Source of the DNA: a virus
Taxonomy: Duplodnaviria > Caudoviricetes
IMG/VR virus record: IMGVR_UViG_3300025389_000010
Coordinates: 1 to 64,000 of that record
Strand: one strand, 5' to 3'
Length of the DNA stretch: 64,000 nt
In this document: positions 11,101-39,501 of the stretch, piece after piece
Position numbering within the stretch: position 1 is the stretch's first letter
How the letters are laid out: every line of letters starts with the position of its first letter
Made by a program: the position numbers and the translations under genes
The notes under the pieces: model-generated
Databases searched by the model: none
What the model saw: only the letters and a program-made list of their open reading frames with translations
Told to the model about the DNA's origin: nothing

Positions 11101-12630
11101 TGTATGGATATCGGTTTATTCTCGCCTGATAATCAAGTCATGGAACAGATGGCTTCCGATGGTCATTATTACGATTTACAAAAATTATCATCAATGACCG
11201 ATTTTGATGAATATTCTTTGAATCAATATATTTCATTAAGATTAATTGGTTGTTTCCCAGCCGTACCCACATGGTGTAAAGCTATAAAAACCGCAGGAGG
11301 TGTATGGGTTTCGTCAAATGAACCCACTGATATGATTTTAAATCCCGGTGATTATATTGTTTATAATCATCAATCATCTGCAAATTATACAACACAAAAT
11401 AATAATAACTTTTCGGTAAATGCAATATCTTTTACAATTAATAAAAAATTAAACGGTTGGGATTATGATACAAATTCATTTTCTCTTTCTGCCATAGGTG
11501 ATTCATATGGCGCAAAACCTTATTGGGGTAAAATGTATGCAAAGGATGAAACAGATTTTGTTAAAAAGACACTATACTTTGGTGGTCAAATAAGATTTTT
11601 AAATGGTTATGTTCCTGTTCATCAACCTGTAGTTTCTGATATGAAACTATCAAATGGTGGTTTTTTTGAATATACAAGCAGAGGCAATAAAAATTTAAAT
11701 TGGATACAACCTGTTTCGTTCAATGTACATTTAACATCTCAACAATGGAATAAACTAATTGTGAGTGAAGATTTTTCAAATTTATCTTTTGCATTACAGA
11801 CTAACAATTTATTAGATTTGATAACAGATTACACTTACGAACCTAGTGATATTGTTCTTGAAAGTTATTCACAATTTAGTCCAGCCCTTTATAATTTATA
11901 TTTAAGAAATCCAAGTTTTATATATAATGAAAATTTATATTATTTAAATTCTTGTAGCGAATCCTATTATATTTTTACATCTGGTGTTGTTCTGTCCGTA
12001 TCAGAACCGTACATGAATTTGGAAAACGTACATTATCCTTCAGTTGCAACTGTTGATTTCCCATCAAATATGGTGTCTAAAAATAAAATAAATTTTTATA
12101 TGACACCAGATAAATTAGGTGTTTCTTTTTATAGAGGAAAAGGATATAGTATTAATCTTGATCCAAATTCTTTATCTTATGTAAATTCAATAAGTGCAGA
12201 AAGATTATTTTTGGATATTAATAAATATGGACCAAGAAACAGAGGATTGACTAAAAAAGATCAAATTTCACCGGTTGTTATATCTGATATTGATAATAGA
12301 TGGATTTATGAACCATTTACATCATCATCAATGGCTGGTAAAATCAGAGATACGGTTCAAAATCAAAAAATGACACCATATATGTCAAATTTTGAATCTG
12401 ATTTATACAATAATATTGGTTTATCTTTACAAAATGATAATTTTAATTTCTGGAATGTTGATTATAATAATGAATGGAATGATAATAAAAATTATCCATT
12501 GACACTCAGAAAAGAAATAGCCACATCATCTTATAATAAGAGAATAGAAACACTCTTGGTAAATAAAGGAACATTAACAGAATGGAAAACCGATATATAC
12601 GGTAATAACTTTGGATTATTTAAAAATTAA
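8104..12630 (+). CDS. large putative virion protein with internal vWA domain, 1508 aa
   Basis: LVVLLDHSRT (MIDAS-like, about 10560), KKIVIISDG, ITCMDIG..MEQMAS; rest unassigned. Confidence 0.8.
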   Translation: MDISLSTQTPLSYVDWSNSIGSFAVASQEKYLSYLNNWYSFNSNLNYKNNLKKTTRDQYIQLIKDVSYLFNKDERDLFLSDIDYTKDEDLIYIIPYIVQKLKEISQIICAKREQLKYTNTKQSMIGTDQALEKILYEYVLKNFTKKEYSYTHVPISPLQNVFPELSAVNDGFFIEVEELYDTNTYFDSDPSVDVSKYVDITKLASYEPFADLSEDELMGLLVTRFLPKVSETPLSTIYNQYVQSFTTTASAVSGFASSQLYNRIAANQKYLSENVYALTAVKNSEVNNPDFVLNLSFQQGNNWFYWPSGDKITDVDTIGNIYKAIPINQSNLVLNRTVTGSSYFDSDLFFTDKNGTIEGAWLQGDRIEKSYDKISLHINAGEKRYFIYPFVGFNIDPKSFEFSGYSLNDDNNEIFNSLYKDTKQKVLTEYYNGTLPVSASFDIYLNQTNLLSAGAYAGYFSDQGDTIIKKASAQNFKDFSDYLYGDVEGAFLYKYDYTEIYVGSGDNDIIWPLGTYNAATSLIPITINQETCLPIPLNEIDPRHSMVGSIAGTDFQSADVIYKMQSRGGTDAIEAAWLGTGNISQLDIIKNAIQVYSTSAVNCADYIDGPILSSLSLLINPGDKVSFVWMDRDTPADEVFSFKQHAAGCPFGKTFPHDFYENQDYLNNNPLNGAEDFPLTKNPCTCRSVYYSPIGCQGNSPSDYNGIMDYLFADPQGVGSNLNLKTWVDTRNFNAFNSPQFAFYKLDGTLDQEVGFGTGKWQTGDGQPMILKTGRRYTYSRTNLRKTSSNAAVVPYLLVNYPYKQITVNCPKGYTNQTDLVVLLDHSRTETRSVDFIKNIASDLCSKILSNNADVKLSLISFAFKPEVKNYLNNSLGLILQNIASIQPYRNAVADYPAFLTDIYSALNSANDVLFNNKPYDNICDENDVTALCNNVSTQIIDNSGVALRDSNGVTLELNCPRKNAAKKIVIISDGQETVNIDKAVPYAKTLKDKGVEITCMDIGLFSPDNQVMEQMASDGHYYDLQKLSSMTDFDEYSLNQYISLRLIGCFPAVPTWCKAIKTAGGVWVSSNEPTDMILNPGDYIVYNHQSSANYTTQNNNNFSVNAISFTINKKLNGWDYDTNSFSLSAIGDSYGAKPYWGKMYAKDETDFVKKTLYFGGQIRFLNGYVPVHQPVVSDMKLSNGGFFEYTSRGNKNLNWIQPVSFNVHLTSQQWNKLIVSEDFSNLSFALQTNNLLDLITDYTYEPSDIVLESYSQFSPALYNLYLRNPSFIYNENLYYLNSCSESYYIFTSGVVLSVSEPYMNLENVHYPSVATVDFPSNMVSKNKINFYMTPDKLGVSFYRGKGYSINLDPNSLSYVNSISAERLFLDINKYGPRNRGLTKKDQISPVVISDIDNRWIYEPFTSSSMAGKIRDTVQNQKMTPYMSNFESDLYNNIGLSLQNDNFNFWNVDYNNEWNDNKNYPLTLRKEIATSSYNKRIETLLVNKGTLTEWKTDIYGNNFGLFKN

Positions 12631-14948
12631 CTTTCTTTTCTTTCCTGTGGTGTATAATGGAAAAACCTGTTGTGTTCAGTTGGAGTAGCAAGTAATATTG
12701 CAGTTACAATTTTATCTTTTAATGTTTCTTGATAGATATAAGACATCCATGTTTGCTCATATGGATATGCCCATTTTGTTTCTAAAAACATCTTTTTGTT
12801 TCCTTCTCTGGATACGACTTGAGGCCAATTACAGTAGTATATTTCACCAGTTGCATAAGGTAAACCATTAAACGATTTAATGTTTTTATATTTTAAGAAC
12901 GGTGCTTTGTTTGTGTCATCACTTGTCTTATTAGGTCTTTCTGGAAAGAACTTTTCTCTTATATCTTGCGGTACATTATGCCAAGCCCATTGTCTGGAAT
13001 TATCACCGAAGAACTCTGTAAAGTTCCATTTAAGATAATCAAATTTTTCATTCCAAATGATATTCATGACTTTATCATAAAGGTTATCAACCTTTCTCAT
13101 GAAACCATTTTTACAGAAGTTATCTTCACCGAGATAAAAGAACATATCATCTTCAAAAAAGAAATGATAATCAAAATTATTTTCATCTGCATGTTCAGAT
13201 ATATATTGGCGACCACCACATATACCAAGATTTTCTTTCATCTTTAAATGAGTAAAATCATATTTTTCACATAACTTTTTATAATCATCATATGTTTTTG
13301 AATCTGTGGAATTATCAATCAAAAACTTCTTTGGTTTATTTAAGAAGTTTTTATCATATTGTTCAAATGACTGACAAAGTTTTGAAAATTGTTCTGGAGA
13401 ATTATATGTTAATACATATAAAGCTGCATTTTTAATATCCATCTTATTAACAAGTGATATTATGTTTTTCTTATAATTTTTATCTTTTAAGTCCTCAAAG
13501 AAAGGCCATATTAAACCGTTGTCTTCTATAAGATACTGTGTTACTAATTCGGGATTATTATAAAGTATTATACTAAAGATACTTTCTTCTGTACCCATGT
13601 ATCCTTCCGATAAACTATTCTTTAAATGTCTATAGTAATGTGAATTGATTTCATTTATTCTCTCTTTCTTGCCACCAAAGAAACCTCCTCGACAAACATA
13701 TTTCACATAGTCTGTATTGGCATAATTTGCAATAGCACCTCTTTCAAATCCATGTATTTCTCCACCGCCCACATATGGATATGTCAAGAAAACAAATTCA
13801 TTATTCGCATCAATGAAATCAGGAAGGTTATTAAAAACCTTATCATGTGTGAAATAACCATAATGAACCGTATTTGCTATACCGGCATCTATCCAGAAAA
13901 AATATTCGCTTTCAAATGGGTTCCATATGGTAACGTTGTTTACCATAAACATTTTACTCATTACCACTGGATTATAACCTTCTAATGTAGCCTGTGGTGA
14001 TTCTCTTAACCAACTTGCCTGTGATAACCATTTCTCGTCTTTTCTTATTTCATTTACTTTATCTGTAAACTCAAACCATTCTTTCATGTCATCCAGACTC
14101 ATGAAGTTAAGAACAGTGTTTTCCTTCTTTCTATGTTTCCATATAAACTCTTCGTCAGCTTTATCAATGAAGATATACATTGGAACATCTGTTGCTAACA
14201 AAAGTGCCATCTTGTCCAAATAATCACTATAGCTACGCTTGAATGATTCGTTTATATCACCTCTTCCCATGTTCCATAATCCAGTAACAATCGTTACTTT
14301 ATTCTTTTCAAGTTTTGTTACTTGTGTTTTTGATGCTTTTTCTATATCTTTCATAGTAAATTCAGGAAATTTATTTTCAATTTCCTTTATAAAAATATCA
14401 GGTAATGGGTGTTCATTAATTTCAATATTTATTGTTAATTTTTCAGGTTTTTCTTTTATGAAAATACAATAATTGTGTCTTAAACACAATGGATAATATT
14501 CTCCATAACGTTCAAAGAAATTACTAAATGTTAAATCTTCTTGCTGGTGTGTTTCGTGTATATTATCAAATTGTGTGGTTTGTGATGGTAAGAAAGGTAC
14601 ACCAATTATAACATTTTTATTAATTTTTGATAATAATGTTTGTGCATCGAAAACAGATGTATGTTCTAACACATCACCTAATATTATAAGATCATATTGA
14701 TTGAAATCTATATTTAAAGAATTTATATCGCCAATATATAAATTTTTATATTTTTCTTTTAAGTTAAATTTAGTAACATAATCATAGAAAACTTCTACAC
14801 CATCAATATTTTCGTAACCTTCTGGTTTTAATAAATCCGAGTATGTTCCGCATCCAGCACTAATATCTAAAATTTTACAATTCTTATTGTAATTTTCTAA
14901 AATATATTCTTTTGTTTGTTGTTTAAAATATCCTGTGCTAAATGGCAT
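12627..14948 (-). CDS. fusion of SAM methyltransferase, HtrL/YibB-like glycosyltransferase and GT-A domain
   Basis: ILDISAGCG and IILGDVLEH; VTIVTGLWNMGR, SKMFMV, YFFWIDAG, RGGFFGG, GTEESIF; YVLTYNSP, NLGICGGRQ, FFEDDM. Confidence 0.75.
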   Translation of the reverse strand: MPFSTGYFKQQTKEYILENYNKNCKILDISAGCGTYSDLLKPEGYENIDGVEVFYDYVTKFNLKEKYKNLYIGDINSLNIDFNQYDLIILGDVLEHTSVFDAQTLLSKINKNVIIGVPFLPSQTTQFDNIHETHQQEDLTFSNFFERYGEYYPLCLRHNYCIFIKEKPEKLTINIEINEHPLPDIFIKEIENKFPEFTMKDIEKASKTQVTKLEKNKVTIVTGLWNMGRGDINESFKRSYSDYLDKMALLLATDVPMYIFIDKADEEFIWKHRKKENTVLNFMSLDDMKEWFEFTDKVNEIRKDEKWLSQASWLRESPQATLEGYNPVVMSKMFMVNNVTIWNPFESEYFFWIDAGIANTVHYGYFTHDKVFNNLPDFIDANNEFVFLTYPYVGGGEIHGFERGAIANYANTDYVKYVCRGGFFGGKKERINEINSHYYRHLKNSLSEGYMGTEESIFSIILYNNPELVTQYLIEDNGLIWPFFEDLKDKNYKKNIISLVNKMDIKNAALYVLTYNSPEQFSKLCQSFEQYDKNFLNKPKKFLIDNSTDSKTYDDYKKLCEKYDFTHLKMKENLGICGGRQYISEHADENNFDYHFFFEDDMFFYLGEDNFCKNGFMRKVDNLYDKVMNIIWNEKFDYLKWNFTEFFGDNSRQWAWHNVPQDIREKFFPERPNKTSDDTNKAPFLKYKNIKSFNGLPYATGEIYYCNWPQVVSREGNKKMFLETKWAYPYEQTWMSYIYQETLKDKIVTAILLATPTEHNRFFHYTPQERKES

Positions 14949-14984
14949 ACTTTATTTAATAAATTTTTTATTTATTCAAGAGTT

Positions 14985-15707
14985 TTATTCCTCAAATCTT
15001 TGAGAGTAAAGCTTGCTATTGTAATCGCTAAAGTGTGGCAAGTGAAAAGCTGCAAAATTACTTGTCGGTTTTATTTTTTTAACACCATTATAAGAAAATA
15101 TTCTATCCATCATATCACCATCTTCACCACCCCAACCTACATATTTTTCATTAAACCCACCAATATCCAACAATAAATAAGTATCGCAAATATAAACGCC
15201 ACCTAATCCACCAACATGACCATTACCAAATGGGCCGTTTTTTCTATTACCGGAATATGCATAAGACCAATCGGCTTTATCTAATATAAATTCATCATTT
15301 GCCAAATATTGATCTATTAGTGTATGATCAAGTTTAGCTAAATCAAAAGTTATAACATTTCCTTTTTCTAAACTTTTTATAAGATTCAAGAAATTATTAT
15401 AATCACTTTTATCAAAAAAAGCATCACAATCAATCATCATAAAAAAATCAGAGTTTGCGTTTTCTTTTAAAATAATATTTGTTTTTTCTGCTTTTTTATA
15501 TACACCCAGTGGATATGAAATATGAATAGCTTCATCTATAACTTTTTCCGGAGAAAAATCATAAAGTTTTACAAAAGAATTAATCCCATTTTCAAGTAAA
15601 AAAGAATTTAATTTTTTTAATTCTTTCCAAGCGAAATTTACATTTCTAACTCTTGTTGAATCTTCTTGACCATCATGCCAAAATTTCATGTTAATTGATA
15701 ATCTCAT
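14985..15707 (-). CDS. GT-A glycosyltransferase with GT7/GT2 C-terminal signature
   Basis: MMIDCDAFF (DxD) and GGFNEKYVGWGGEDGDM. Confidence 0.75.
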   Translation of the reverse strand: MRLSINMKFWHDGQEDSTRVRNVNFAWKELKKLNSFLLENGINSFVKLYDFSPEKVIDEAIHISYPLGVYKKAEKTNIILKENANSDFFMMIDCDAFFDKSDYNNFLNLIKSLEKGNVITFDLAKLDHTLIDQYLANDEFILDKADWSYAYSGNRKNGPFGNGHVGGLGGVYICDTYLLLDIGGFNEKYVGWGGEDGDMMDRIFSYNGVKKIKPTSNFAAFHLPHFSDYNSKLYSQRFEE

Positions 15708-16585
15708 GCGAATTCCTCCAATACTTTATAAAAACTTTTATTTATTTTTGTGTATTCTATCATATCCAAACCTTCAATGCTTAAGCCTTCATGCCACCAA
15801 ATTTCAAAATATTTTGGTTTGAATAAATAATTATGATTGAAATATATCACGGTCATTATATTTTCTTCAGCGTAAAGAACAGTTTCATTATCCAATAATT
15901 TATTTAAATAGTCAAAGAATAAATTACAGTATTTTTTCATTTGATCAATTTTGCCACCAAAAAATCCACCAATTATATGAAATACGTTATCATAATCTTT
16001 ATAATAAGATGAAGGGACCGTTCCCATCCAAAAGTTTTTTTGATTCTCTTTTAGACATATTACAAGTCCATCATCAGAATATTTTGCCATATTATTGATA
16101 AATTTATTATCGAATATTGTGGATTCGTAATATGTTTCCCAATAACCAGTGGTAAAAGGTCTGTATTTTGGAGGTATAATACCACAATGTGAAAGACCAG
16201 CATCAAACCAAAAAACATAATCGTATGATTCATCTTTGCATTCTTCCATACACCATATGAATTTAGAATATTGTATTTCAGAACACCTATCTGATTTTTT
16301 TACTTCATCTATGTTTTTTATTTTTTTTATTTTTTCTGAAAATTCAAAATTATAAAGATCATAAAGTTTAAATTTTATTTTATCTTCGGTAAAATTATGT
16401 TCTTCGTAAAAGAAATGTTTAAGATCTTCTATTTCATCCTCCTTTGTATAACAAACAAAATCAGCATCGGACATTTTAAGCAAAGATTTTAAAGAATGCC
16501 TATAATGTCCGCCTCTATTCATTCTGCCTCCCAAATCTGTACCAAAAAGATTTGAAAATATAGCTGTTACTATTTTAATTTTCAT
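15704..16585 (-). CDS. HtrL/YibB-like glycosyltransferase
   Basis: YSKFIW, YVFWFDAG, IIGGFFGG, AEENIM; resembles the middle domain of 12627..14948. Confidence 0.65.
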   Translation of the reverse strand: MKIKIVTAIFSNLFGTDLGGRMNRGGHYRHSLKSLLKMSDADFVCYTKEDEIEDLKHFFYEEHNFTEDKIKFKLYDLYNFEFSEKIKKIKNIDEVKKSDRCSEIQYSKFIWCMEECKDESYDYVFWFDAGLSHCGIIPPKYRPFTTGYWETYYESTIFDNKFINNMAKYSDDGLVICLKENQKNFWMGTVPSSYYKDYDNVFHIIGGFFGGKIDQMKKYCNLFFDYLNKLLDNETVLYAEENIMTVIYFNHNYLFKPKYFEIWWHEGLSIEGLDMIEYTKINKSFYKVLEEFA

Positions 16586-17513
16586 TTATTTCCTTTTTAA
16601 TTTTCTCCCAAAGGTTATATTTATAATTAGTTAAAAATTCATTTTTTAAATCCTTTATGGGTTTTTTATATTTTTCATATAGAGAATCTGCATTTTTATT
16701 TATTTCAGATATGAAATCTACCATTTCAGAAATAGATTTATTGTTTAAATAAAGAAAGCATTCTTCTGGTATATAATCTTTTATATTTTCACAACCGAGA
16801 TATATAGGAACAGTATCGGTTAAAATAACATCCCAAAATTTCTCACTTAAATAATTTTTCTGTATACAATTTTCAGAACATATTGAAAACTTATAGTTAT
16901 TTAATGCTACATGTTTATTCCAAATTTCACCTATAATATTTTTCCCATTTGGTTCCCAAAAAAGACCATAAATATCAACAAAATCATATTCACATAAATC
17001 TATTCCAAGGTCCGTTCTTTTTTTATTGTTTATTTTAAAAATATTAGGAACTTCTAGATTATCATAATGAGAAGAATAATCTTTTCTTACAATATAAGAA
17101 ATATTTTTACTTTTTTCAAAACTTCTATCAATGATATCAATGTTCCAACTAAATTCATTTCTATTATCATTTTCACCAGAACCACCGTAAAACATAGGGA
17201 CCATCCCTTCGATATATTCAGGAGAATTTGGATACATTCTTTTATCTGCTATAAAAACTTTTGAACAATATTTATGTAATATATCTCTATTTTCATTTGG
17301 TGACCATAATGGTTCCTGTGTAAAAAAGAAAGTTCTTTCCTTTGGTGTTTGAATTTTAGTCCAATCAGTTTTACCAAAAATAATCGTAAAATCTGGATTT
17401 TCTGTTACTAAATTAAAACCATCATGGTTAAAATCATTTAAAAATTGATTTCTGAATCTTTGATTTAAACTATAAGAATCTGTCCACCAACATTCTAATT
17501 TTATATTTTTCAT
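16575..17513 (-). CDS. GT10 alpha-1,3-fucosyltransferase-like protein
   Basis: YKFSICSENCIQKNYLSEKFWDVILTDTVPIYLG matches the alpha-1,3-FucT motif. Confidence 0.8.
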   Translation of the reverse strand: MKNIKLECWWTDSYSLNQRFRNQFLNDFNHDGFNLVTENPDFTIIFGKTDWTKIQTPKERTFFFTQEPLWSPNENRDILHKYCSKVFIADKRMYPNSPEYIEGMVPMFYGGSGENDNRNEFSWNIDIIDRSFEKSKNISYIVRKDYSSHYDNLEVPNIFKINNKKRTDLGIDLCEYDFVDIYGLFWEPNGKNIIGEIWNKHVALNNYKFSICSENCIQKNYLSEKFWDVILTDTVPIYLGCENIKDYIPEECFLYLNNKSISEMVDFISEINKNADSLYEKYKKPIKDLKNEFLTNYKYNLWEKIKKEINEN

Positions 17514-18112
17514 GTTATTTCTAAACCAAGAGCATTATATCTCGTATAACGATCTATTATGTATTTATAATTATATCCTTTTTTATCTTTCATTGCTCTT
17601 AATTGATCAGCATAATGACCGTCTGCGTTTCTGTGATCAATATATGGGATTATAGTGTTTTTCATTATTCTCCATCTTATCATAAAAGAACCAATATCAG
17701 CATGTCCTAATTGTAATCTGTAATCTTCACCGTAAAGTCTTATTTGTTCAGTAAGACCTTTTTTTTGAGAAAATAAAACTAAGTCTGTATCAGTGTTTTT
17801 TTCTTCATTAAAAGTTAATATGAGATCATGAGTAACGATATTGTCATCATCTAAAAAATAACACCAATCGTTATCATTTGCCATGATATCTGTTATAAAA
17901 TAGTTTCTTTGTTCGTGACCCCAAGCATAATTTGTTTTTATTTTATGATAGATAATTCTTTCATCTAAAAGAATATCTGTAAGATCATAATCTCCAGTTT
18001 TTTTACTACCTTCTATTAAATGCCAATTGAAATCGGTAACTTGATTTTTTATTGTAGAGTAAATAATAGGTACATAATTATACCGATACAATGGTGTTAT
18101 AAAATGTATCAT
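17510..18112 (-). CDS. GT2-like glycosyltransferase
   Basis: HFITPLYR, YFLDDDN, ADIGSF, ADGHY. Confidence 0.7.
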   Translation of the reverse strand: MIHFITPLYRYNYVPIIYSTIKNQVTDFNWHLIEGSKKTGDYDLTDILLDERIIYHKIKTNYAWGHEQRNYFITDIMANDNDWCYFLDDDNIVTHDLILTFNEEKNTDTDLVLFSQKKGLTEQIRLYGEDYRLQLGHADIGSFMIRWRIMKNTIIPYIDHRNADGHYADQLRAMKDKKGYNYKYIIDRYTRYNALGLEIT

Positions 18113-18147
18113 TACTTTATTTGGATCTACATTCTTTTTTTTATCAG

Positions 18148-19854
18148 TTAAATTTTTTTTTTATACGTTTGGAAAAAAGGTTCATATGGATATTGTTTTT
18201 CATCCTGAATAACTTTTTTCATTGGTGCTCCAAATAAACCACATATTCCACTACTATCATGAACATATTTCGGATTTTCTCCATCTAATGCGAAATCCCG
18301 ATTAAATTTCGTATATTTGCCTATTCCGGGTTTTATTTTTTCATCTCTTATGTTAATAACAAGATTATTGACATTTTGTACATTTAATTCGGGTACATCT
18401 TTATTATATTTTTCAAAATATCTATATGCAATATCTCCATCTTCCTCTCCAAAACCAAGAAGCCTTTCATCAAAGTAATTAATTTCATCTATTATTTGTT
18501 TATTTATGAGGAAATGTGAATAAGATCTGTTTATTCTATAAAGATCTGGTTGCTTCTTTATATATTGCGATACTACTTCAAATAAGTTATTAGATTCTAT
18601 AGTTAAATCGTCGTTTAAAACTAAATTCCAATTTGTTTTGCTATGTATTATTCCTGTATTCCACATTTTAGCCAAACCTCTTTGTTGTGGGAAGAAAATA
18701 GGAAATATATTATCAAAATTATAACATAACTCTAAAACTTTTTTCCTATATTCATTCTGAAAAGGAGATTTATAATCACCATTTACTAATATTAATATAT
18801 CTTTTTCTGTAAAAGATCTTATTTGTTCTATTAAATTTTTTAAATAATCAAATCTTTTTGAAAAAGTAGTTATACAAATTGAAAAATCATCTTCGTCTTC
18901 ATCATATAACGGTTGATCATTTTCTTCTTTTGTTTCAATTTCAATTTCAACATTAGCTTGTGTTTCAACACTAACAGATATTTCTTCTTCTTTTATCGAA
19001 ACAATATCTTTTATTTTTTGATTCAAAGACTTCTTAAAATCATCATACCACTCTTTGACACTGATAGCGATATCATTATATTCTTCAGGTGATAAACTTG
19101 CATAATATTCAAGTTGATTCCAGTTTTCTATTTTGATGATAGGTGCATTACCCCAAACTTTGTCGAAATAATCATAATTATCATACTTTTTAATGATAGG
19201 AACGCAACCCCATTCTAAAGTTTCCATGATTCTGAAGCTATCGGGGTGTGCCCATCCACGTGGACATGGTGTGAATTTTGTTTTCTTATAGATGTCTGAA
19301 CATCTTCTTGGTGACAAAGATGTTGGACAATCCCAGTTATGTATACCATAAAAGAAAGAATCATCTCTCTCTTTTAAAAATTCTAAAACTTCCATTCTAT
19401 CTAATCTTTTAAATTGACCTATAAAAGAAAAATTAAATTTCTTTTGATTTAAATCGAAATTTTCATTTTTATTAACAAATCCAGATTTAACACCAACAGG
19501 AATATATGTAACATTATCTGATTTAATATTTGGGTTAAAATATCCTCTAAATACATGTTTTGCTTTCTCATAATAAGAACAATTATGTCTTAATTGTTCA
19601 TCTGAAAGATGAAGAAGATAATACGTATAACCATTATCATCAAATTTTTTTAAATATTCTTTAAATGAATCTGAAATATTGATGTCATCATTTGAATATA
19701 TAATGACTGAATTATCAAGAATCGTTTGATATTTACCATTATCGAAATAACGATCATGTTCAATATCTTTGAATAATATTTCGGTTATATATTCAAACTC
19801 AAAATCAGTTTGACCACCATTAGTTGTTTGCCATATTAGATTAATTTTTTTCAT
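18148..19854 (-). CDS. two-domain glycosyltransferase: exostosin/GT47-like plus GT2-like
   Basis: FSFIGQ..KFTPCPRGWAHPDSFRIMETLEWGCVPII; ICITTF, LVLNDD, FDERLLGFGEEDGD. Confidence 0.75.
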   Translation of the reverse strand: MKKINLIWQTTNGGQTDFEFEYITEILFKDIEHDRYFDNGKYQTILDNSVIIYSNDDINISDSFKEYLKKFDDNGYTYYLLHLSDEQLRHNCSYYEKAKHVFRGYFNPNIKSDNVTYIPVGVKSGFVNKNENFDLNQKKFNFSFIGQFKRLDRMEVLEFLKERDDSFFYGIHNWDCPTSLSPRRCSDIYKKTKFTPCPRGWAHPDSFRIMETLEWGCVPIIKKYDNYDYFDKVWGNAPIIKIENWNQLEYYASLSPEEYNDIAISVKEWYDDFKKSLNQKIKDIVSIKEEEISVSVETQANVEIEIETKEENDQPLYDEDEDDFSICITTFSKRFDYLKNLIEQIRSFTEKDILILVNGDYKSPFQNEYRKKVLELCYNFDNIFPIFFPQQRGLAKMWNTGIIHSKTNWNLVLNDDLTIESNNLFEVVSQYIKKQPDLYRINRSYSHFLINKQIIDEINYFDERLLGFGEEDGDIAYRYFEKYNKDVPELNVQNVNNLVINIRDEKIKPGIGKYTKFNRDFALDGENPKYVHDSSGICGLFGAPMKKVIQDEKQYPYEPFFQTYKKKI

Positions 19855-19861
19855 AAATTTA

Positions 19862-21151
19862 TTAACTTAAATAACCGACAATTCTTTCTTCCCACCCATT
19901 AGATGCAGAATGAGGCCACACGACCCAATATTTGGGTGGCTTTTCACATTGGAATTCCCTCCAAACCTTACAATATCCATCTGGATCAGCAAACATCCTT
20001 GCAATTTCTTCAGGATCTGCATCTTTTCTAAATACTGTTTCATCTTTTTCATTGTGGAAAGCAACACACCAGAAGTCATAGTCTTTTGACTTAACCTGTT
20101 CATAACCAATGTCAATACAATGTTTAAATATTTTCAAGAATGAATTTTCGTACTCAACAGGATCTTCAATAACAGGATTCGGTGCTATGTTATTGTCAAG
20201 AGTAAATCTCTGAACTGCTCTTTTCTTAAAACAAAGACCTGAGTATGCTTCATATTGTTCCAAAGTTCTCACTGTACCAAATCCATAAATGCCAAAATCA
20301 ATATCTCTCTTTTCACCGTCCATCTCAAACAGTTTTCTGTTCTTTAAATGGCATGCATTGTTTCTTTGTACCCAAATCTTATCGTCATCCCATTGCTTTG
20401 GTCTGCCTTTTCTTGTATACTCATGCCAAGCTATGACTTTATGAGAATGAAATAAATCGTAACCCCAAGTAAAGGCTCTTACTGCGATTGAAATTTCTTC
20501 TCCATGAAAATAATATTCGGGATCATGTGGGACTTCTTTACAGAACTGTCCCAAAGTGAAACAAAAATGTGCCGAATAAAACCTTGCAGGAATTGGTTCA
20601 TTAAGTTCTCTCCAGTTATCAATCGTAGCCGGTAAGAAGAAAACAGCACCTTCTGGAATGAACCTGTCAAAATTCATTTTCCAAGGTTCATCTATTCTAG
20701 CTGCTGGATCATTATCGGGATCAAAACTAGGAATATAACCGGTAATTAATGGTTTTTTATGACCTTTCTTCTGAAGATCCTTGACCATTTTTATAAGCTC
20801 GTAATCCCAATCTTTAACAAACCTATGATGACTGTCTAACTGCAATGTATATTCTTCACCATCATATCTTTGTTGAATTTCATTTCTAGCCCAGCATGCA
20901 CCCTTACTTTCAAGATATGGTATTTCTATAATTTTAAATCTTGGATCGTTTTTATACCCATCAAGATTTTCAGTTTCATCATATTGCCAAGCAATACAGA
21001 ATACAAGATTTTCCGGATTTTTTGCATTATCCAAACAATCCTTTATGGTAAAAGGTAATTGTGGATCTCTATAAGATGCAATCTGTATAAAGATTTTTTC
21101 TGCTTTTTTCTTTGTGCTTTTCTTCTTTGTTTTTGTATTATTCGTTGCCAT
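19862..21151 (-). CDS. GT60 / Gnt1-like polypeptide alpha-GlcNAc transferase
   Basis: IFIQIASYRD, GACWAR, YTLQLDSHHRF..WD, ITGY, VPHDP, FHGEEISIAVRAFTWGYDLF, WHEY. Confidence 0.8.
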   Translation of the reverse strand: MATNNTKTKKKSTKKKAEKIFIQIASYRDPQLPFTIKDCLDNAKNPENLVFCIAWQYDETENLDGYKNDPRFKIIEIPYLESKGACWARNEIQQRYDGEEYTLQLDSHHRFVKDWDYELIKMVKDLQKKGHKKPLITGYIPSFDPDNDPAARIDEPWKMNFDRFIPEGAVFFLPATIDNWRELNEPIPARFYSAHFCFTLGQFCKEVPHDPEYYFHGEEISIAVRAFTWGYDLFHSHKVIAWHEYTRKGRPKQWDDDKIWVQRNNACHLKNRKLFEMDGEKRDIDFGIYGFGTVRTLEQYEAYSGLCFKKRAVQRFTLDNNIAPNPVIEDPVEYENSFLKIFKHCIDIGYEQVKSKDYDFWCVAFHNEKDETVFRKDADPEEIARMFADPDGYCKVWREFQCEKPPKYWVVWPHSASNGWEERIVGYLS

Positions 21152-21612: not shown

Positions 21613-21615
21613 ATT

Positions 21616-22047: not shown

Positions 22048-22061
22048 TGAATAAATTTACT

Positions 22062-22424: not shown

Positions 22425-22433
22425 ATTGATATA

Positions 22434-28961: not shown

Positions 28962-29336
28962 TTATAAAAATTTTATATTTTTCTTATCGACATTAAAAGA
29001 AAGAAGTTTTGTTGATAAAGTAACAGGTGTATTTAATTTAGTTTTCATAATTTCAACCAAACCATCATAATTACCACTTTCTCTTATTAAGACTTCTTTT
29101 ATATATCCCAAACACATTCTTCCTATTTGAACATTTAAATCTATTTGCGGATCAAGATTGCAAAGACTAAAAATTAAAGGATTATATGAAGATATCGGGT
29201 TTTTAAAAGTTGAACACCATGTTCTAATTGTAAATGCGCCTCTGTCTGTATCCACATTTAAAATTTCAAAAGAAACATCGTCGAAATTTTCACTATTCAT
29301 ATGTAATAAATTTATAACAATAAATTTAAATGTCAA
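28962..29336 (-). CDS. hypothetical protein, 124 aa
   Basis: ORF track; overlaps the fibre gene stop. Confidence 0.65.
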   Translation of the reverse strand: MTFKFIVINLLHMNSENFDDVSFEILNVDTDRGAFTIRTWCSTFKNPISSYNPLIFSLCNLDPQIDLNVQIGRMCLGYIKEVLIRESGNYDGLVEIMKTKLNTPVTLSTKLLSFNVDKKNIKFL

Positions 29337-32300: not shown

Positions 32301-33172
32301 TTCCAGTTACCATTAATTGTTCTTTTTACTGATGAACTATCAGTTGAATAAGAATCACTAGGTTTTACACCAAAAGAAAAGTTTTGTGTATTATCAATAC
32401 TTAAAGCATTGTAACTATTATAATTTAATACCGTGTTGTCTATGTCTATTATACCATGAATAGATGATGCTGAGATTTGATCAGTAATCGTATTTTTTAT
32501 TATATTAGAATCTGATGATAAATTTTTTATTATTGTATTAAATGAACTTAAACTATAAAGGTTTGTTTTATTTGAAATTAAATTTTTTGCTGATGTTTTA
32601 ACTGTTGATGTTACATTCTCTATTTTTATAGTACCATTTGCTATTTGTTGTGCAATAATATCTGTCATTATAACCGGATTATTGACAGACGAAAACGATG
32701 TTAAATTTGTAACATTTATATTATTTGCTGTTAAATTATTAAAAGTTGTATTATTATCAAATTCAGTTTTGCTTTTAAAATAAATGTTATTGTTTATTGC
32801 AAGTTTATCAATTCCTGTTAATTTATTAGTTGATAATGTTGGTAAAAAAGAAAAAACAGAATGTAGAGATCCATTTATATCAAATTCAAAAATTGGAGAA
32901 GTATTATTATAACCTAATTTTTTACCTTTAATTGTTAAAGAAGAATTATTTGTAAATGTTCTAGAAGATGAATAAGATGAATTTTGAGTTATTAAAGGGA
33001 AATAATAATATTTTAAAATATCAGTAGTCGAATAACCCGGCGGGAGACCTAAACTAGGTTCAAGAACTTTTAAATTTACAAAATCCGGTAATTTAAGTTT
33101 AAATGAATTAACAGCGGTTAAATTAACCATAACTGTAGTTTCACTTATTGAAATTGGGTCTGTGTAATTCAT
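29333..33172 (-). CDS. putative tail fibre/adhesin with mucin-like Thr/Pro stalk and Gly-rich tip
   Basis: N-terminal part paralogous to 33186..35663; TPT-rich tract about 30155-30715; C-terminal GKGGNGGPGG, Cys-rich insert, GAT repeats. Confidence 0.75.
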   Translation of the reverse strand: MNYTDPISISETTVMVNLTAVNSFKLKLPDFVNLKVLEPSLGLPPGYSTTDILKYYYFPLITQNSSYSSSRTFTNNSSLTIKGKKLGYNNTSPIFEFDINGSLHSVFSFLPTLSTNKLTGIDKLAINNNIYFKSKTEFDNNTTFNNLTANNINVTNLTSFSSVNNPVIMTDIIAQQIANGTIKIENVTSTVKTSAKNLISNKTNLYSLSSFNTIIKNLSSDSNIIKNTITDQISASSIHGIIDIDNTVLNYNSYNALSIDNTQNFSFGVKPSDSYSTDSSSVKRTINGNWNNDSNESFTKNEVSKPFFKNLNSVFDYIITNNIRGNQINVYIYEDVETGTLTSITGPLSYQFHDTNDLKTNHPEVLTAGLSGGIFIWNTSTANTTPIGFSNLTIPDIDFININISGVYEIGSLIYSPPVKQYVKQKPFNASPHKISLRNYVCRNKNIANGNFSETGKPFNINDWTCIKSNMPANYHGIYFTNNKARVNLQNLCFEFYLNTNEANCLVFKGKTTIGNLTVALLGSSLYDGPIYVGGDSAYVKVKGTNQIDPYFLTPLTWSNAWKSIQGATGPDYYPGWGIAVVGQQNINARRSWVDPLVFNMAGGAIVEVFDETTNREIGRSSLLNSGIIVDGHFNSGSLYNLNKKCHLISSNYLFRSNNFSLSSQTSTYDNTTYIHSFNNSNGNNNFYNVKLTNSYNIYTPNNYGLTPWTIDVTQNLSRTITNDPNLAIKFGNYNDPNYIFNSSLRSVDMTNIVNSISARNNIEVIQNVSNNSNLFYIVGDKDLTLYNHAYYKINTPFDYNNSSYVLNYYSSYSYYYKNVETPDPSPSVTPTQTPSLTPTNTPTQSQTTTPTVTNTQTVSPSFTQTPTQTQTPTQTPTVTPTYTPTHTYTNTPTYSPSYTPSVSPSNTFTQTPTNTQTPTNTPTLSNNATPYPTHTPTKTQTPSHTFTRTPKSTPPPTPPVTPPSTPPKTPPVTPSHTRTQTRTPTRTPTYTRTGTQTPTHTPTKSPVFSKVSITIGQNINNIDIWTLLTTGLLPAGVTRSNYWDTTHPLELTVIINSSVTVGSTSTSSAAMTFDKSRGSSIQSGRDKIKIVVNGGAKIIGKGGNGGPGGTGPYQIGSQGYPGGPALDLTGSYYGFVINNNGLIAGGSGGDGGNKGGTTSVSKNGIYCDGKTYWSQQYSFCPTPATSDDCGKTRITSNCVQGDWHVSHQVCYTQYTCSYSVNVDTTGATGATGATGGGKQGNSGDAGAGGGSYGYDIVSYGNVQSYYSGPSGLTYGHNN
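29464..29499. repeat. perfect 9-bp tandem repeat (caccagttg)x4 encoding (Gly-Ala-Thr)n
   Basis: Direct reading of the sequence. Confidence 0.85.
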
Positions 33173-36067: not shown

Positions 36068-38080
36068 TTACTCCAAAACTAGGTTCAATGGTGTAACTAA
36101 TGTCATAATTGCACGTTTGAAGGTATCTCCTTCAATAGTACCCGTGCTTTGAACAATTTTAAAATTAGGTCCAACTTTAAAGTCACCCAATTCATTGGAA
36201 CTTGTAAAGTATACAACGCCCGGTGCATTAGTATCATATAAACCATCGAAAACAGCTTCGTTTTCGTTTATGGCTACACCACCGTATGCTGGAACAGCAC
36301 TAACCATTCTTGTACCGGTTCCCATGTATTCAAAGGTATGAGATCCTGTTTCCACCATGCTTCTTGCAAAGAAGTAAACCCATGCGCTTGAAAAATCTCT
36401 ACCTCTTAAATTTCTAATATTTAAATATGGTGTATTATATGTAAGTTGAATGTCATAAGCATTGGTATTATTTATACCATATTGTCCTGTAGAATTGTTT
36501 TTAACTACTGATAAATCAACCGTGAAAATTTTTGGTCTGTTGTTGAGCGGTAATGTTGGGTCTATATCACTTTCCATGATATAATCTGCATTACTTGTTG
36601 GATTAGGAACCGAAACCGTAAAACAAAGATTTGTATATGGAACCGTAGCGATAATATCGGGATGTGGATCATTCTTGGGGAATGGTACATATGCCATATC
36701 TTTAATTGTGAAAGTATCACCACCACTTAAATATCCATATTGATAATTATAACCAGTATTTGAGGTCGGGTCTACTCTGAAATCTTGTGGCATTACTGTA
36801 AATGTTCCACTTAAAATCGGCGTACCTAAATTAAAATAATTGGATAGATTTACAGGTGTACCATTAACGGTGCTTAGAGTTGGATAATTTGCCAATCCAG
36901 ACATTCCTCTTCCAATAAGACCAGAAAGACCAAATGTAGAATTTGATGTACTGATTGAACAACTTCCACCACTTTCACACACTATACCTTCATATGTCGC
37001 AACTGTGAAAATACTAACCAGCTGCGCATAACCATGATTTAAAATATGAAGACCTCTACCGCCTTGATTAACTTGTGTAAACGAATCAAGAACCATGCTT
37101 CTGAATTTACCAGTAACGAGAGATCCATCTATTCGCATACCAACACCAGCATCGTTTAAATTTTTGTCATCAAAAACCGTAGGTAATGCATATGATGTAC
37201 AACCTTGAACATATGGACTTACTTTTATATCAGGTCTTCCTACTGGAATGCTAAATAATGGTGTTAACCCCGAAGAATTCGTGCTTCCATAATATGCCAA
37301 ATTATATGCATTTATATTTTTGTTAGCATTTTGCGTATTTAAAGGATATGCAATAGCAGCAGGTGGTGATATATCTGTTAATCGATTTGCTGTTGTATAA
37401 TAACTTGGATCGCTTGGATCTACACCATTTTCTGTTAATTTTCTATGCCCTCTGAATGTGAAACCCCAAACGTAACATGCGCTGTTTACCCACAAAATAT
37501 CTTTATCTACATTTAATGGGCTTATTGTAGTTCTTCTTAAATTATCTCCAATCAAAGAAGTATTGGGTGGAAGATATACTGGATTATTTTCAACATAATT
37601 ACCACTTCTTACTAAGATAGACCATTGTTTTGGACGAGATGCTGGATTTGGATCGTTTACATCAACTAAACCGGCATTTAAAGCTGCTTGTTCATTTGCA
37701 ATACGTGCAGCTGCATATTTAATTGTACGATATGGTAATTCTTCGTTTCTTCCTCTTTCTGGATAATCATTAGCATCAACACCACTCATGGATACGTAAA
37801 ACGTATTTGCCATTGGATTTTGGTGTGTGTTAATATAATCTAAAAATGAATCTACCGTAACTTGACGAGTTACAACATCAGTATTGGTTAAAACTAAAGT
37901 TTCTTTACCTACTATAGGACTACCTTGAATATCTAATTGACCAATCGAATTTGATAAAAAAGAATATGGTGATACTTTTCTAGTTATATCCTGCTCTATA
38001 ACTAATAAATCATTATTTATATCTATTGGTTGGATCGGGGGTCCACCTGATGGTAATTCTGGAATTCTTGTATATGACAT
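36068..38080 (-). CDS. putative tail fibre/baseplate protein with beta-helix-like region
   Basis: FYVSMSGVD..PYRTIKYA..ILVRSGNYVENNP..SLIGDNLRRTTI..SPYVQGCTS, as in T4-like cyanophage-type structural proteins. Confidence 0.7.
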   Translation of the reverse strand: MSYTRIPELPSGGPPIQPIDINNDLLVIEQDITRKVSPYSFLSNSIGQLDIQGSPIVGKETLVLTNTDVVTRQVTVDSFLDYINTHQNPMANTFYVSMSGVDANDYPERGRNEELPYRTIKYAAARIANEQAALNAGLVDVNDPNPASRPKQWSILVRSGNYVENNPVYLPPNTSLIGDNLRRTTISPLNVDKDILWVNSACYVWGFTFRGHRKLTENGVDPSDPSYYTTANRLTDISPPAAIAYPLNTQNANKNINAYNLAYYGSTNSSGLTPLFSIPVGRPDIKVSPYVQGCTSYALPTVFDDKNLNDAGVGMRIDGSLVTGKFRSMVLDSFTQVNQGGRGLHILNHGYAQLVSIFTVATYEGIVCESGGSCSISTSNSTFGLSGLIGRGMSGLANYPTLSTVNGTPVNLSNYFNLGTPILSGTFTVMPQDFRVDPTSNTGYNYQYGYLSGGDTFTIKDMAYVPFPKNDPHPDIIATVPYTNLCFTVSVPNPTSNADYIMESDIDPTLPLNNRPKIFTVDLSVVKNNSTGQYGINNTNAYDIQLTYNTPYLNIRNLRGRDFSSAWVYFFARSMVETGSHTFEYMGTGTRMVSAVPAYGGVAINENEAVFDGLYDTNAPGVVYFTSSNELGDFKVGPNFKIVQSTGTIEGDTFKRAIMTLVTPLNLVLE

Positions 38081-38133
38081 TATATATATTTATGTTTGAG
38101 ATTAATATTTTTTTAATTTTTTTTTATTAAAAA

Positions 38134-39501
38134 TTACATAGATGTTGGTGAATGTGTTGGTCTTGGCGTTCTTGGTGGATAATACGTTGGAGTTCTTTGT
38201 GGTGTTCTGGTTACTCTTGGTGTTTTTGTGTTGGTTATAGTAGCTGTCGGAGTTTGCGTATTTGTAGGTGTTGGTGGTATTGTCGGTGTTACAGTTGGTG
38301 TTTCGGTGTTTGCTGGTGTAGCGGTTGGTGTTGGTGTGTTTGTCGGTGTTTCCGTATTTGATGGTGTATTCGATGGTGTATTCGACGGTGTTGCTGTATT
38401 CGATGGTGTTAAACTGCTTGTCGGTGTATTTGTACTTGTTGATGTAGTTGTTGGTGTAATTGAAGACGTTGGTGTTTGTGATGAAGTAATAGACGGTGTC
38501 GGTGTGTGAGTTGGTGTTCTTGTTGGTGTAGTTGTTTTTCTGGGTGTTTTTGTGTTCGTATTTGAAACCGTAAGATGTGGTGTTCTTGTTGCTGATGGTG
38601 TTGTTGTTGGTGTTGCCGTGTGAGAAGTTTGTGTGAAAGATGCAGTAACAGTTCTTGTTGGAGTTTGAGTTACCTTTGCAGTACGTGTTGGTGTCTTCGT
38701 AGGTGTAACCGTTTTTGTAACTATAGGCGTTCTTGATTGTGTTAAAGTTTGTGTTCTTGTAATAGTATTTGTGGGTGTATTTGTTGGAGTTGTTGTAATT
38801 GTATAAGAAGGTGTAACTGAAGGTGTTGGTGAAGGAACTGGATTTAAATCACCATATGGTATATAAAAATTAATTTCATCTACTTTTTCTTTTGTTAGAT
38901 TTAAACTTATTATACCCAAGTCATTAATATCATTCTTCATCAAGAATGATATATTGAATTTTTTTGTATCTGGATTATATGTAAGTTTTGGATCTTCTTT
39001 ATTGCCGTTAGAATTTGACCAATTACTAACAGTATTAAAATCTAAATTTACATTTTCAGTTATAAGATTTTTAATGTTATTTGTATGTAAATCAACAACA
39101 TTAAAAAATAAAGAAAAGGTTATTTTTGGTTGATTTACACCAACAGTTTCATTAAAACCACAATAATATATTTTGTTTTCAGATTCATCAAACCAATAAT
39201 CTATATTCGTACTTGATAATTGTGTAAAAAAATCAAACTTACTATAAGGTTGAATATTTGAATTTTCATCTAAAAAGTATTTTTCAAAAATATATCCACT
39301 TGTTGTTTGGATATAAAGAGTATCATAAAAAACATCTATTTTTGTTATTTGATTGGAAGATAAATCATAAAAAAAATTAGGTTCTAATTCTTGATATTTT
39401 AAATATATCGAAGATAAAACAAGAGGAGCAGATAAGGTGTTATTATTAGCATCCCTTAACCAAAATTCACCAACATTGTTCTTATCGTTATAATGATCCA
39501 T
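38134..39501 (-). CDS. protein with globular N-domain and about 235-aa C-terminal mucin-like Thr/Pro/Ser tract
   Basis: From [13 protein letters not shown] (about 38840) to the stop the sequence is almost all T/P/S/N repeats. Confidence 0.8.

Follow-up and report, generated by a model that had tools for sequence, protein, structure and literature searches.

The window analysed here, a stretch of 64,000 nucleotides, is part of the 226 kb genome of an uncultured T4-like phage. Seven contiguous ORFs on its minus strand (12627-21151) code for nine glycosyltransferase (GT) domains and one methyltransferase, while the genes of two proteins with long Thr/Pro (T/P) tracts, P0001 and P0002, lie within a co-oriented baseplate and fibre block (Table 1). 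Seven of the nine GT domains were assigned by Pfam or fold searches and two by Atlas leads. The gene number and the count of about nine GT domains plus a methyltransferase agree with a preliminary description of this DNA, and the GT60-like, GT47-like, GT2, GT10, HtrL-like and GT7C-like domains named there were matched in Pfam. Membrane segments were looked for in the cassette proteins, including the GT60 protein, and none was found in any of them. Sugar-nucleotide enzymes were also looked for, and because none is encoded in the genome, the donor sugars are not readable from it.

Table 1. Positions of the cassette and fibre-block features in the window
Feature	Position	Strand	Basis
Three-domain enzyme, 773 aa: methyltransferase, HtrL-type GT-A, second GT-A	12627..14948	-	
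Second GT-A of 773-aa protein	12630-13436; invariant E-D-D 13146-13154	-	
HtrL-type GT-A of 773-aa protein	13542-14300	-	HtrL_YibB PF09612, 2e-19
Methyltransferase domain of 773-aa protein	14616-14906	-	Methyltransf_23, 1e-5
GT2/GT7C-like glycosyltransferase, 240 aa, variable cassette	14985..15707	-	Pfam
HtrL/WlaTC-type glycosyltransferase, 293 aa, semi-conserved	15704..16585	-	Atlas structure lead
GT10-family (fucosyltransferase-type) glycosyltransferase, 312 aa, variable cassette	16575..17513	-	Pfam PF00852
Small GT2-type glycosyltransferase, 200 aa, variable cassette	17510..18112	-	Atlas structure lead
Two-domain glycosyltransferase, 568 aa, variable cassette	18148..19854	-	Pfam
GT2 domain of 568-aa protein	18403-18882	-	PF00535, 1e-7
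RXYLT1_C/GT47-like domain of 568-aa protein	18997-19470	-	PF24785, 6e-9; PF03016, 3e-4
GT60-family polypeptide HexNAc-transferase, 429 aa, putative initiating enzyme	19862..21151	-	Pfam PF11397
C-terminal beta domain of GT60 protein, phage-specific	19865-20140	-	
Catalytic GT-A domain of GT60 protein	20147-21100	-	
D-S-H metal motif of GT60 protein, invariant	20828-20836	-	
P0001, fibre-block protein, 1279 aa, putative acceptor	29333..33172	-	Translation, tract statistics, gene context
Tail-fibre protein without T/P tract, between P0001 and P0002 genes	36068..38080	-	PHROG
P0002, 455 aa, putative acceptor	38134..39501	-	Translation, orthologue comparison

The product of 19862..21151 matched the PF11397 (GlcNAc/GT60) profile with 229 bits against a cut-off of 21 bits (E 1e-67), and the match was reproduced in a six-frame search of the whole genome. 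The predicted metal site D106-S107-H108 is invariant across 25 phage homologues. The best Swiss-Prot fold match of the AF2 model (pLDDT 89) was Dictyostelium Gnt1 (Q8T1C6; E 8e-24, TM 0.62), which beats the next family by 13 orders of magnitude. A PDB sequence search with the protein gave no match, and the best 45 PDB fold matches of the model were all GT27 ppGalNAc-transferases (45/45). Membership in GT27 was rejected, the likeness being one of fold only at 10-16% identity and Pfam assigning the protein to GT60. A ricin-type lectin domain was rejected as well, the C-terminal domain of about 90 aa being too small for a beta-trefoil. Taken together, the product is predicted to be a polypeptide-modifying enzyme of the GT60 type, with α-GlcNAc transfer to Thr/Hyp as its putative reaction. 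Characterised GT60 enzymes need Mn2+, as the family does in general (PMC3769586), and glycosylate Thr-rich mucin domains (PMC3769586, PMC8724618).

The GT60 gene and that of the 773-aa enzyme bracket a variable set of GTs, and these two, GT60 and a two-domain GT, form a core across more than 100 viral contigs. Conservation was counted over 80 related loci (62 non-redundant clusters). Homologues were present in 6 of them for the 568-aa two-domain GT, in 8 for the GT10-type protein (PF00852 C-terminal domain, E 1.2e-13, 51.6 bits against a cut-off of 23.9) and in 6 for the 240-aa protein (PF02709, Glyco_transf_7C, E 5e-10; PF10111, 1.5e-3). The 200-aa ORF, with homologues at 2/80 loci, had no Pfam match and resembled GT2 clusters in the Atlas (structure TM 0.77-0.82, feature score 0.98; a lead only). 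The 293-aa ORF, also left blank by Pfam, resembled HtrL_YibB families (Atlas structure TM 0.72-0.74, again a lead only); it has homologues at 19 loci, and its counterparts in the phages XacN1 (ORF332) and RAS14 share 27-29% identity with it (tblastn). A genome search for GDP-fucose synthesis genes found none.

In the 773-aa protein, PF09612 matched aa 217-469 with 70.7 bits (cut-off 24.1 bits), and the C-terminal third, blank in Pfam, forms another GT-A domain, in which an EDD motif is invariant. The double-GT part (aa ~215-773) is the partner of GT60 that is kept at 67 of the 80 loci. The top fold matches of the AF2 model (pLDDT 86) were bifunctional two-GT enzymes: LARGE1, LH3, K4CP, Mimivirus R699, ColGalT1 and PmHS2. 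The tandem GT-A architecture is shared with LARGE1 (matriglycan), K4CP, PmHS2 and LH3/ColGalT1 (Foldseek E 3e-10 to 1e-6), although the TM is only 0.23-0.27, because the domain orientation differs, and sequence-level family membership is limited to HtrL_YibB in the first domain. A polymerase activity of the partner is speculative.

The translations confirmed the two mucin-like tracts described earlier, of about 185 and 235 aa, together with their PxPSP[ST] openings (PDPSPS and PVPSPT). P0001 consists of an N-terminal region of about 815 aa, a T/P tract of 187 aa (30155-30715) and a distal Gly-rich domain of 273 aa, and P0002 of a 212-aa N-terminal domain followed by a 235-aa T/P tail that runs to the C-terminus (38137-38841). 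The P0001 paralogue in the relative G008 lies in a frame of 2540 aa, whose T/P tract covers 490 aa or more. Thr makes up 36-43% of the tracts and Pro 15-22%, whereas the genome-wide values are 7.3% and 4.3%, and Ser/Thr occupies every second residue in runs of up to 51 dipeptides. The codon pattern of TPTxTPT was counted from tens to more than 100 times in each GT60-positive record, while a reversed-pattern control gave 0-2 occurrences; the tracts are not due to chance. Instead of the two T/P proteins first described, the genome has four, two of them outside the window (genome positions 72436-73851 and 162411-172424). The third, with a T/P-Gly-rich-T/P layout, sits between the portal gp20 and gp15 genes, and another is a 3337-aa LamG giant outside the structural module.

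The genes of GT60 and of the T/P proteins are linked across phages. At 22 of the 80 loci, no more than 150 nt separate GT60 from a T/P ORF upstream of it; a T/P ORF is equally close downstream of the partner gene at 20 of 67, and at least one adjoins the cassette at 29 loci (21/62 non-redundant clusters). Tracts were present in 21/23 GT60-positive records and in 0/11 GT60-negative records of the same capsid clade (Fisher p = 3e-7, phylogeny not corrected for), statistics that are inflated by shared ancestry and fragmentary contigs. The search of GT60-positive fragments showed two with no tract. Complete genomes alone gave 7/7 against 0/2. On the capsid tree, both traits switch together in 3/3 supported-branch contrasts and 5/5 overall, the sign test on independent contrasts being not significant. 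In the reverse direction, GT60 was found in 15 of 39 T/P-bearing contigs picked blind, compared with 4 of 50,697 GenBank phage records, and five of eight near-complete records in this reverse sample had tracts without GT60. The preliminary description had named this co-occurrence beforehand as a point on which its reading could fail, and it proved strong in both directions.

The P0002 gene itself follows the same pattern. Its orthologue in the GT60-positive G008 (574 aa) has a T/P tract, whereas those in the complete GT60-negative genomes G022 and G023 are bare proteins of 242 and 252 aa; a search for the partner GT in these two genomes found it absent. The orthologue in one GT60-positive fragment (G031) is also without the tail. 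Cassette and tracts occur together in lineages whose capsids share 33-35% identity or show no detectable relationship, and the cassette moves between phage lineages. Because the GT60 block is almost confined to phages with T/P stalks, we consider it probable that these phages sugar-coat their own particle proteins, the cassette being a cytoplasmic mucin-type O-glycosylation system that acts on the T/P proteins of the virion.

Mobility could also be read as hitch-hiking, the T/P link being a by-product of a mobile region while GT60 acts on one regulatory target of host or phage. The nearest characterised relative, Gnt1, is indeed a soluble cytoplasmic enzyme, and its target is hydroxyproline on one specific protein (Skp1), not Thr of mucin-like tracts. 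However, no prolyl-hydroxylase-type 2OG oxygenase was found in the genome, and for one regulatory sugar, eight more GT domains plus a methyltransferase would be superfluous. Hitch-hiking also cannot account for T/P tracts at several distant loci of each GT60-positive genome or for an orthologous gene that has lost its tail in place, so a regulatory role is very unlikely.

The location of the T/P proteins rests on gene position. The preliminary description called P0001 and P0002 putative virion proteins, which stands as far as gene context in the structural block is concerned: the product of 36068..38080, which marks this block, matched PHROG tail fibre families (E 3e-52 and 5e-44). A search for a named virion family gave no match for P0001 or P0002, or for the T/P proteins flanking the cassette in relatives. 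These proteins carry lectin-like, P-domain, RCC1 and LamG modules, which are generic adhesin parts, and the giant of 3337 aa is encoded away from the structural module. These features would also suit glycosylated proteins that are secreted, intracellular or exposed on the cell surface, for example as a coat on the infected cell or as a matrix. We regard this as improbable: three of the four putative acceptors are in structural gene blocks, strongly hydrophobic segments, N-terminal or internal, are absent from every protein checked, and the neck or connector-like protein of the window has a homologue in L079 that bears a T/P tract.

The cultured phage XacN1 bears on the same question. It holds the core of GT60 and dual GT, its ORF330 being a homologue of the double-GT part (41% identity), and has TPTxTPT motifs in ORFs adjoining baseplate and sheath genes; both XacN1 and RAS14 infect Gram-negative hosts. 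Further cultured carriers are Xoo-sp13 and CM1. Purified XacN1 virions gave at least two Schiff-positive glycoprotein bands, the proteins being neither named nor tied to ORFs 334/330, and the authors likened its glycosylation to that of PBCV-1 (PMC5852040). These virion glycoproteins argue against T/P proteins outside the particle, and also against a role of the cassette in remodelling glycans of the host surface (LPS, capsule or S-layer) during infection, for example in superinfection block or progeny release, with the T/P tracts as ordinary flexible linkers without glycans. HtrL/WlaTC, GT2, GT10 and GT47-like domains are typically found in enzymes of polysaccharide synthesis, the partner resembles the polysaccharide polymerases K4CP and PmHS2, and the cassette is strain-variable like O-antigen loci. 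Large marine T4-like phages, moreover, often have GT and LPS-type genes whose role is unknown. However, both sequence and fold place GT60 in a polypeptide-modifying family, and host-glycan remodelling leaves the two-way co-occurrence, the adjacency and the loss of the T/P tail unexplained; we therefore give it little credence.

A third possible target is phage DNA, glycosylated as a hypermodified base for restriction evasion. T4-type phages classically glucosylate hmC DNA, and the second GT-A of the 773-aa protein has a weak, sub-threshold Pfam match to TET-associated glycosyltransferase (E 0.017). This is extremely unlikely here, because the genome was found to have no hydroxymethylase gene of the thymidylate-synthase family (PF00303); the preliminary description had listed DNA as an alternative target, and this result disfavours it. 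A Tet_JBP search of the genome gave no match, its control being likewise silent. We know of no DNA glycosyltransferases in the GT60, GT10 or GT47-like families, and DNA as the target would leave the T/P association unexplained.

For glycosylation of the phage's own proteins, which is supported by co-occurrence, adjacency, tail loss, fold and XacN1, we infer the sugars, the Thr acceptor and the stalk role. Soluble GT60 would initiate by adding, through its D-x-H metal site, a first HexNAc to Thr/Ser of the (T-x)n tracts; by family analogy this may be α-GlcNAc from host UDP-GlcNAc. The HtrL-type domain and its EDD GT-A neighbour would then add two different sugars, or possibly a repeating disaccharide, after which the lineage-variable GT47-like plus GT2, small GT2, GT10-type, HtrL-like and GT2/7C-like enzymes may decorate the chain and the N-terminal methyltransferase of the 773-aa protein may methylate its end. 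Candidate acceptors are P0001, P0002, the T/P-Gly-rich-T/P protein encoded between portal and gp15, and the LamG giant. The tract would form a terminal brush in P0002 and elsewhere a stalk that joins an anchoring domain to distal domains of binding type, and the glycans might stiffen, solubilise and protect the stalks on the virion against proteases. The two further acceptors, the conserved dual-GT partner and the mobility of the cassette go beyond the preliminary description.

In a more far-reaching and rather unlikely version, GT60 and its partner would be a portable "proteoglycan kit" that passes horizontally between large phages of no relation to each other. Once GT60 had primed the (T-x)n stalks, the double GT, resembling LARGE1 or chondroitin polymerase, would extend them by polymerising a repeating disaccharide, so that virions would bear glycosaminoglycan- or matriglycan-like brushes whose composition varies with the variable GT set. 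If so, a mucin/proteoglycan pathway regarded as a eukaryotic invention would also exist in phages, and viruses of prokaryotes would be a large reservoir of GT60.

A literature search found no paper on a phage system of GT60 and T/P tracts, and the closest parallels come from other systems. The phage enzyme shares its family and the D-x-H motif with the protist GT60 proteins (Dictyostelium Gnt2/pp-alphaGlcNAcT2 and Gnt1, Trypanosoma cruzi TcOGNT), the acceptors of the protist enzymes and the phage tracts are alike Thr-dense with Pro, and like Gnt1 it is predicted to be soluble and cytoplasmic. In contrast to the protist enzymes, it would act in bacterial cytoplasm, without a Golgi or a signal anchor; its C-terminal beta domain is an addition that lies beyond the part covered by Gnt1, and the conserved double enzyme beside it is not part of the protist pathways. 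Animal GT27 enzymes similarly have a GT-A catalytic domain followed by an accessory C-terminal domain, and their substrates are T/P-rich tracts, the mucin tandem repeats.

The chlorovirus PBCV-1 and Mimivirus, whose R699 is among the fold matches of the partner, glycosylate virion proteins with virus-encoded cytoplasmic multi-domain GT and methyltransferase enzymes. Unlike the phage described here, both are giant viruses of eukaryotes. PBCV-1 carries its glycans in N-linkage on the capsid protein, and to our knowledge this virus has neither mucin-like acceptor tracts nor GT60 initiation. The phage fucosyltransferase-type enzyme is reminiscent of Dictyostelium, for which capping by fucose has been reported (PMC8724618). 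According to the account of Freeman et al. (2023) in PMC12363180, the GTs encoded by the mycobacteriophages Che8, Corndog and Myrna modify the phages' own structural proteins in the host cytoplasm, and the glycans coat the particle on capsid and tail-tube subunits. Here too, GTs and putative acceptors share one genome. The system differs from that of the mycobacteriophages in that its putative acceptors are (T-x)n stalks of 120-500 aa in modular, fibre- or adhesin-like proteins, and in that a far larger cassette, with nine GT domains and a methyltransferase, is found in T4-like and jumbo phages.

The cassette of seven contiguous minus-strand genes probably glycosylates the Thr/Pro-rich (T/P) tracts of virion-associated phage proteins. 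The extent of the cassette was as the preliminary description had claimed, and its count of nine glycosyltransferase (GT) domains and one methyltransferase was borne out by Pfam and fold searches, two of the domains being Atlas leads. Pfam identified GT60 (PF11397) with an E value of 1e-67, and the other matches were GT47-like/RXYLT1_C with GT2, GT10, GT7C/GT2-like, and a protein combining a methyltransferase with HtrL_YibB. The Pfam-blank C-terminal 270 aa of this 773-aa protein constitute a further GT-A domain, in which an EDD motif is invariant, while the 293-aa and 200-aa ORFs are the Atlas leads, with an HtrL-type and a GT2-type fold, respectively. No membrane segment was found in any of the seven proteins, and the host cytoplasm, the site of virion protein synthesis, is thus their expected place of action. 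Elsewhere in the genome, the only other PF00535 (GT2-type) signal was sub-threshold (22 bits) in a 428-aa ORF outside the window. Six small ORFs upstream of the GT60 gene were rejected as parts of the system, being conserved in one related locus only; the 152-aa ORF directly upstream has a below-threshold match to DUF5856 (E 1e-6).

Coordinates of the features discussed (window positions unless marked otherwise)
Feature	Coordinates	Strand	Size	Remark
VWA-domain giant	8104-12630	+	1508 aa	convergent with the cassette
GT cassette	12627-21151	-	seven genes	
Dual-GT partner protein	12627-14948	-	773 aa	best fold match LARGE1
HtrL-type ORF	15704-16585	-	293 aa	
GT2-type ORF	17510-18112	-	200 aa	
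Enzyme with RXYLT1_C match	18148-19854	-		
GT60	19862-21151	-		
GT60 C-terminal beta-rich domain	19865-20140	-	~90 aa	aa 338-429
ORF with DUF5856 match	21154-21612	-	152 aa	
Six small ORFs	21154-24729			
LamG/ConA-like protein	24731-28177	-	1148 aa	
P0001, putative acceptor	29333-33172			
P0001 T/P tract	30155-30715			
P0002, putative acceptor	38134-39501			
P0002 T/P tract	38137-38841			
gp23 capsid	59049-60560			
Neck/connector-like protein	62977-63858			PHROG 211
LamG/ConA-like protein	genome 65798-66517 (L163, same genome, 1798-2517)		239 aa	
PF00535 signal	genome 95909-96115	+		
Third T/P protein	between portal and gp15 genes		471 aa	T/P-Gly-rich-T/P
Fourth T/P protein			3337 aa	three LamG domains
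Neck protein homologue in L079	L079 5066-6436	-		
Carbamoyltransferase gene (ORF333)	XacN1 (L182) 219791-222088			

In protists, GT60 enzymes initiate mucin-type glycans on Thr-rich domains, acting as Mn2+-dependent polypeptide alpha-GlcNAc-transferases (PMC3769586, PMC8724618). In the phage enzyme, D106-S107-H108 was invariant among 25 homologues. Searched by sequence against the PDB, GT60 alone gave no match, and the relation emerged from the fold search: the nearest fold to its AF2 model (pLDDT 89) was Dictyostelium Gnt1 (E 8e-24, TM 0.62), and beyond Gnt1 the matches were only GT27 polypeptide GalNAc-transferases or GT27-like proteins. The phage enzyme also carries a C-terminal beta-rich domain that is without counterpart in Gnt1 and occupies the place of the GT27 lectin domain; binding of the acceptor or of the growing glycan is a possible function.

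In the 773-aa protein, the conserved part was modeled as two GT-A domains, and the best fold matches of that part were the bifunctional enzymes LARGE1, LH3, K4CP, Mimivirus R699, ColGalT1, and PmHS2. Human RXYLT1 and LARGE1 both belong to the matriglycan pathway, which acts on the mucin-like domain of alpha-dystroglycan; the likeness of two cassette enzymes to this one pathway may be a coincidence.

Translation placed the tracts of P0001 and P0002 where the preliminary description had located them. They contain 36-43% Thr and 15-22% Pro, compared with 7.3 and 4.3% genome-wide, with Ser/Thr at alternate residues in runs of up to 51 dipeptides and acidic and hydrophobic residues nearly absent. 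The DNA repeats beneath them are degenerate, indicating that the pattern is maintained in the protein sequence rather than in the DNA. Hydroxyproline is less likely than Thr as the acceptor, since the genome yielded neither a P4H-type nor a related 2OG oxygenase. A whole-genome scan revealed two further T/P proteins. The Gly-rich C-terminal domain of P0001 showed no significant likeness to the third T/P protein and no Pfam family, and the P0001 N-terminal region gave only weak Atlas beta-helix leads (<0.9).

Other modular proteins of the phage and its relatives carry similar elements. Homologues of the VWA-domain giant (~1280 aa) in the related loci L006, L008, L010, and L011 have a T/P tract, and that of L010 has an internal domain resembling the P0002 N-terminus, which suggests domain shuffling among modular T/P proteins. 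In L079, another GT60-positive phage, a 49%-identity homologue of the neck/connector-like protein has a 120-aa N-terminal T/P tract. Several LamG/ConA-like lectin-fold proteins (1148 and 239 aa) lie in structural blocks, and LamG domains are present in the 3337-aa T/P protein too.

The expected co-occurrence of GT60 and T/P tracts held when a codon-degenerate TPTxTPT pattern was used as the probe and the reversed pattern as the control. Nineteen of 21 GT60-positive records had 2-135 matches versus 0-2 for the control, including all six complete ones. Among 12 long contigs of the phage's own capsid clade, the 11 without GT60 had 0-1 matches (including two complete 211-kb genomes), and the sole GT60-positive contig had 94. 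With the genome under study, T/P tracts occurred in 21/23 GT60-positive versus 0/11 GT60-negative records (Fisher p = 3e-7, ignoring phylogeny), and in 7/7 versus 0/2 complete genomes. On the capsid tree the GT60 trait changed 3-5 times and the T/P trait tracked every change, although several negatives are fragments and a sign test on 3-5 independent contrasts cannot reach significance. In the reverse sampling, GT60 was found in 15 of 39 contigs (>=40 kb, chosen solely by a TPTxTPTxTPT pattern), compared with only 4 of 50,697 GenBank phage records for the family; five of the eight near-complete records of this sample had T/P tracts without GT60. Remodeling of a host glycan by the cassette cannot explain this association with T/P tracts.

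The orthologues of the acceptor proteins provide a natural experiment. The N-domain of P0002 occurs in relatives: in the GT60-positive G008 the orthologue (574 aa) comprises the N-domain, a T/P tract, and a Gly-rich end, whereas in two complete GT60-negative genomes the orthologues (242 and 252 aa) are the N-domain alone, and the partner GT is absent as well. The G008 homologue of the P0001 N-region lies within a frame of 2540 aa whose T/P tract spans at least 490 aa. A counter-example is the GT60-positive fragment G031, where the P0002 orthologue has no tail.

GT60 was detected at 60-78% identity in >100 IMG/VR contigs. Among the 80 loci kept for comparison, 67 had the dual-GT partner, and the GTs between or beside the two vary, a layout like that of a variable glycan locus whose ends are conserved. 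In 22 loci a T/P ORF ended no more than 150 nt upstream of GT60, and in 20 one started no more than 150 nt past the partner gene; one or more T/P genes were direct neighbors in 29/80 loci (21/62 clusters at 90% GT60 identity). These neighboring T/P proteins are modular and adhesin-like, combining a lectin-like N-domain, T/P stalk, and P-domain, an N-domain, T/P stalk, and RCC1 propeller, or DUF5122 propellers and LamG domains. In hhalign comparisons, no relation of their N-domain families A and B to the P0002 N-domain emerged. The cassette is also present, always with T/P tracts, in lineages with capsids of 33-35% identity or with none detected by this search; GT60 is 62-67% identical across these lineages, indicating horizontal transfer.

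GT60 is also encoded, at 46-49% identity, by four cultured phages (XacN1, Xoo-sp13, RAS14, and CM1). After it (ORF334 in XacN1) come, in XacN1 and RAS14, a gene of carbamoyltransferase size, one homologous to the 293-aa ORF, and the dual-GT partner (40-41% identity; ORF330 in XacN1). The carbamoyltransferase annotation comes from XacN1; a gene of this kind directly follows GT60 in both phages (L182, L183) and is missing from the window, which suggests carbamoylated sugars in the glycan version of the cultured jumbo phages. XacN1 and RAS14 contain 51 and 22 TPTxTPT motifs, respectively, versus 0 for the control. Those of XacN1 fall within ORF325 (3313 aa), located after baseplate wedge genes and bordering the cassette, and within ORFs 369-372, beside the tail sheath and sheath stabilizer genes. 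Purified XacN1 virions showed at least two Schiff-positive glycoprotein bands, given as bands without protein names, and the authors proposed the phage GTs as their makers (PMC5852040).

The source IMG/VR virus record (225,756 bp, 32% GC, CheckV 100% complete), whose initial 64 kb make up the window, is a T4-like myovirus. Besides gp23, the window contains scaffold, gp44 clamp loader, gp6 baseplate wedge, and tail-fiber PHROGs, with gp20 portal and gp15 just past its end; the capsid shares no more than ~35% identity with those of cyanomyoviruses. The T4 late-promoter motif TATAAATA occurred 12 times on the coding strand versus ~14 expected by chance, as estimated from base composition, and is thus uninformative on late expression. 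The genome has no sugar-nucleotide genes, so the donors would be host-supplied and cannot be deduced from it. Glycosylation of DNA by the cassette is unlikely, because no hydroxymethylase-family gene was found in the genome; a TET search was silent for target and control alike.

The GT60-led cassette and matching mucin-like stalks are widespread, occurring in >100 viral contigs, several capsid lineages, and four cultured jumbo phages, and the cassette is mobile among lineages and differs between strains. If glycosylation is confirmed, protein sequence alone would be insufficient for modeling phage fibers, and long, stiff, protease-resistant 'hairs' and adhesin stalks would have a mechanistic explanation, with a bearing on host-range prediction, particle adhesion in mucus or aggregates, and how immunogenic therapeutic jumbo phages are. 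Soluble bacterial-cytoplasm enzymes for mucin-type glycoprotein production would also become available. To our knowledge, particle glycosylation by a phage's own enzymes is established in a few mycobacteriophages only. Passages in PMC12363180 and PMC12582341 describe this self-glycosylation in mycobacteriophages (Freeman 2023). GT60 mucin-type initiation has been described as a protist trait (PMC8724618). Our literature search found no description of a phage GT60-led system with mucin-like acceptors, and in one virome preprint GT60 figures only as an entry among auxiliary genes. Phage-encoded glycosylation of virion proteins is of a kind already known, while the initiating family, the acceptor type, and the mobile cassette architecture would be new.
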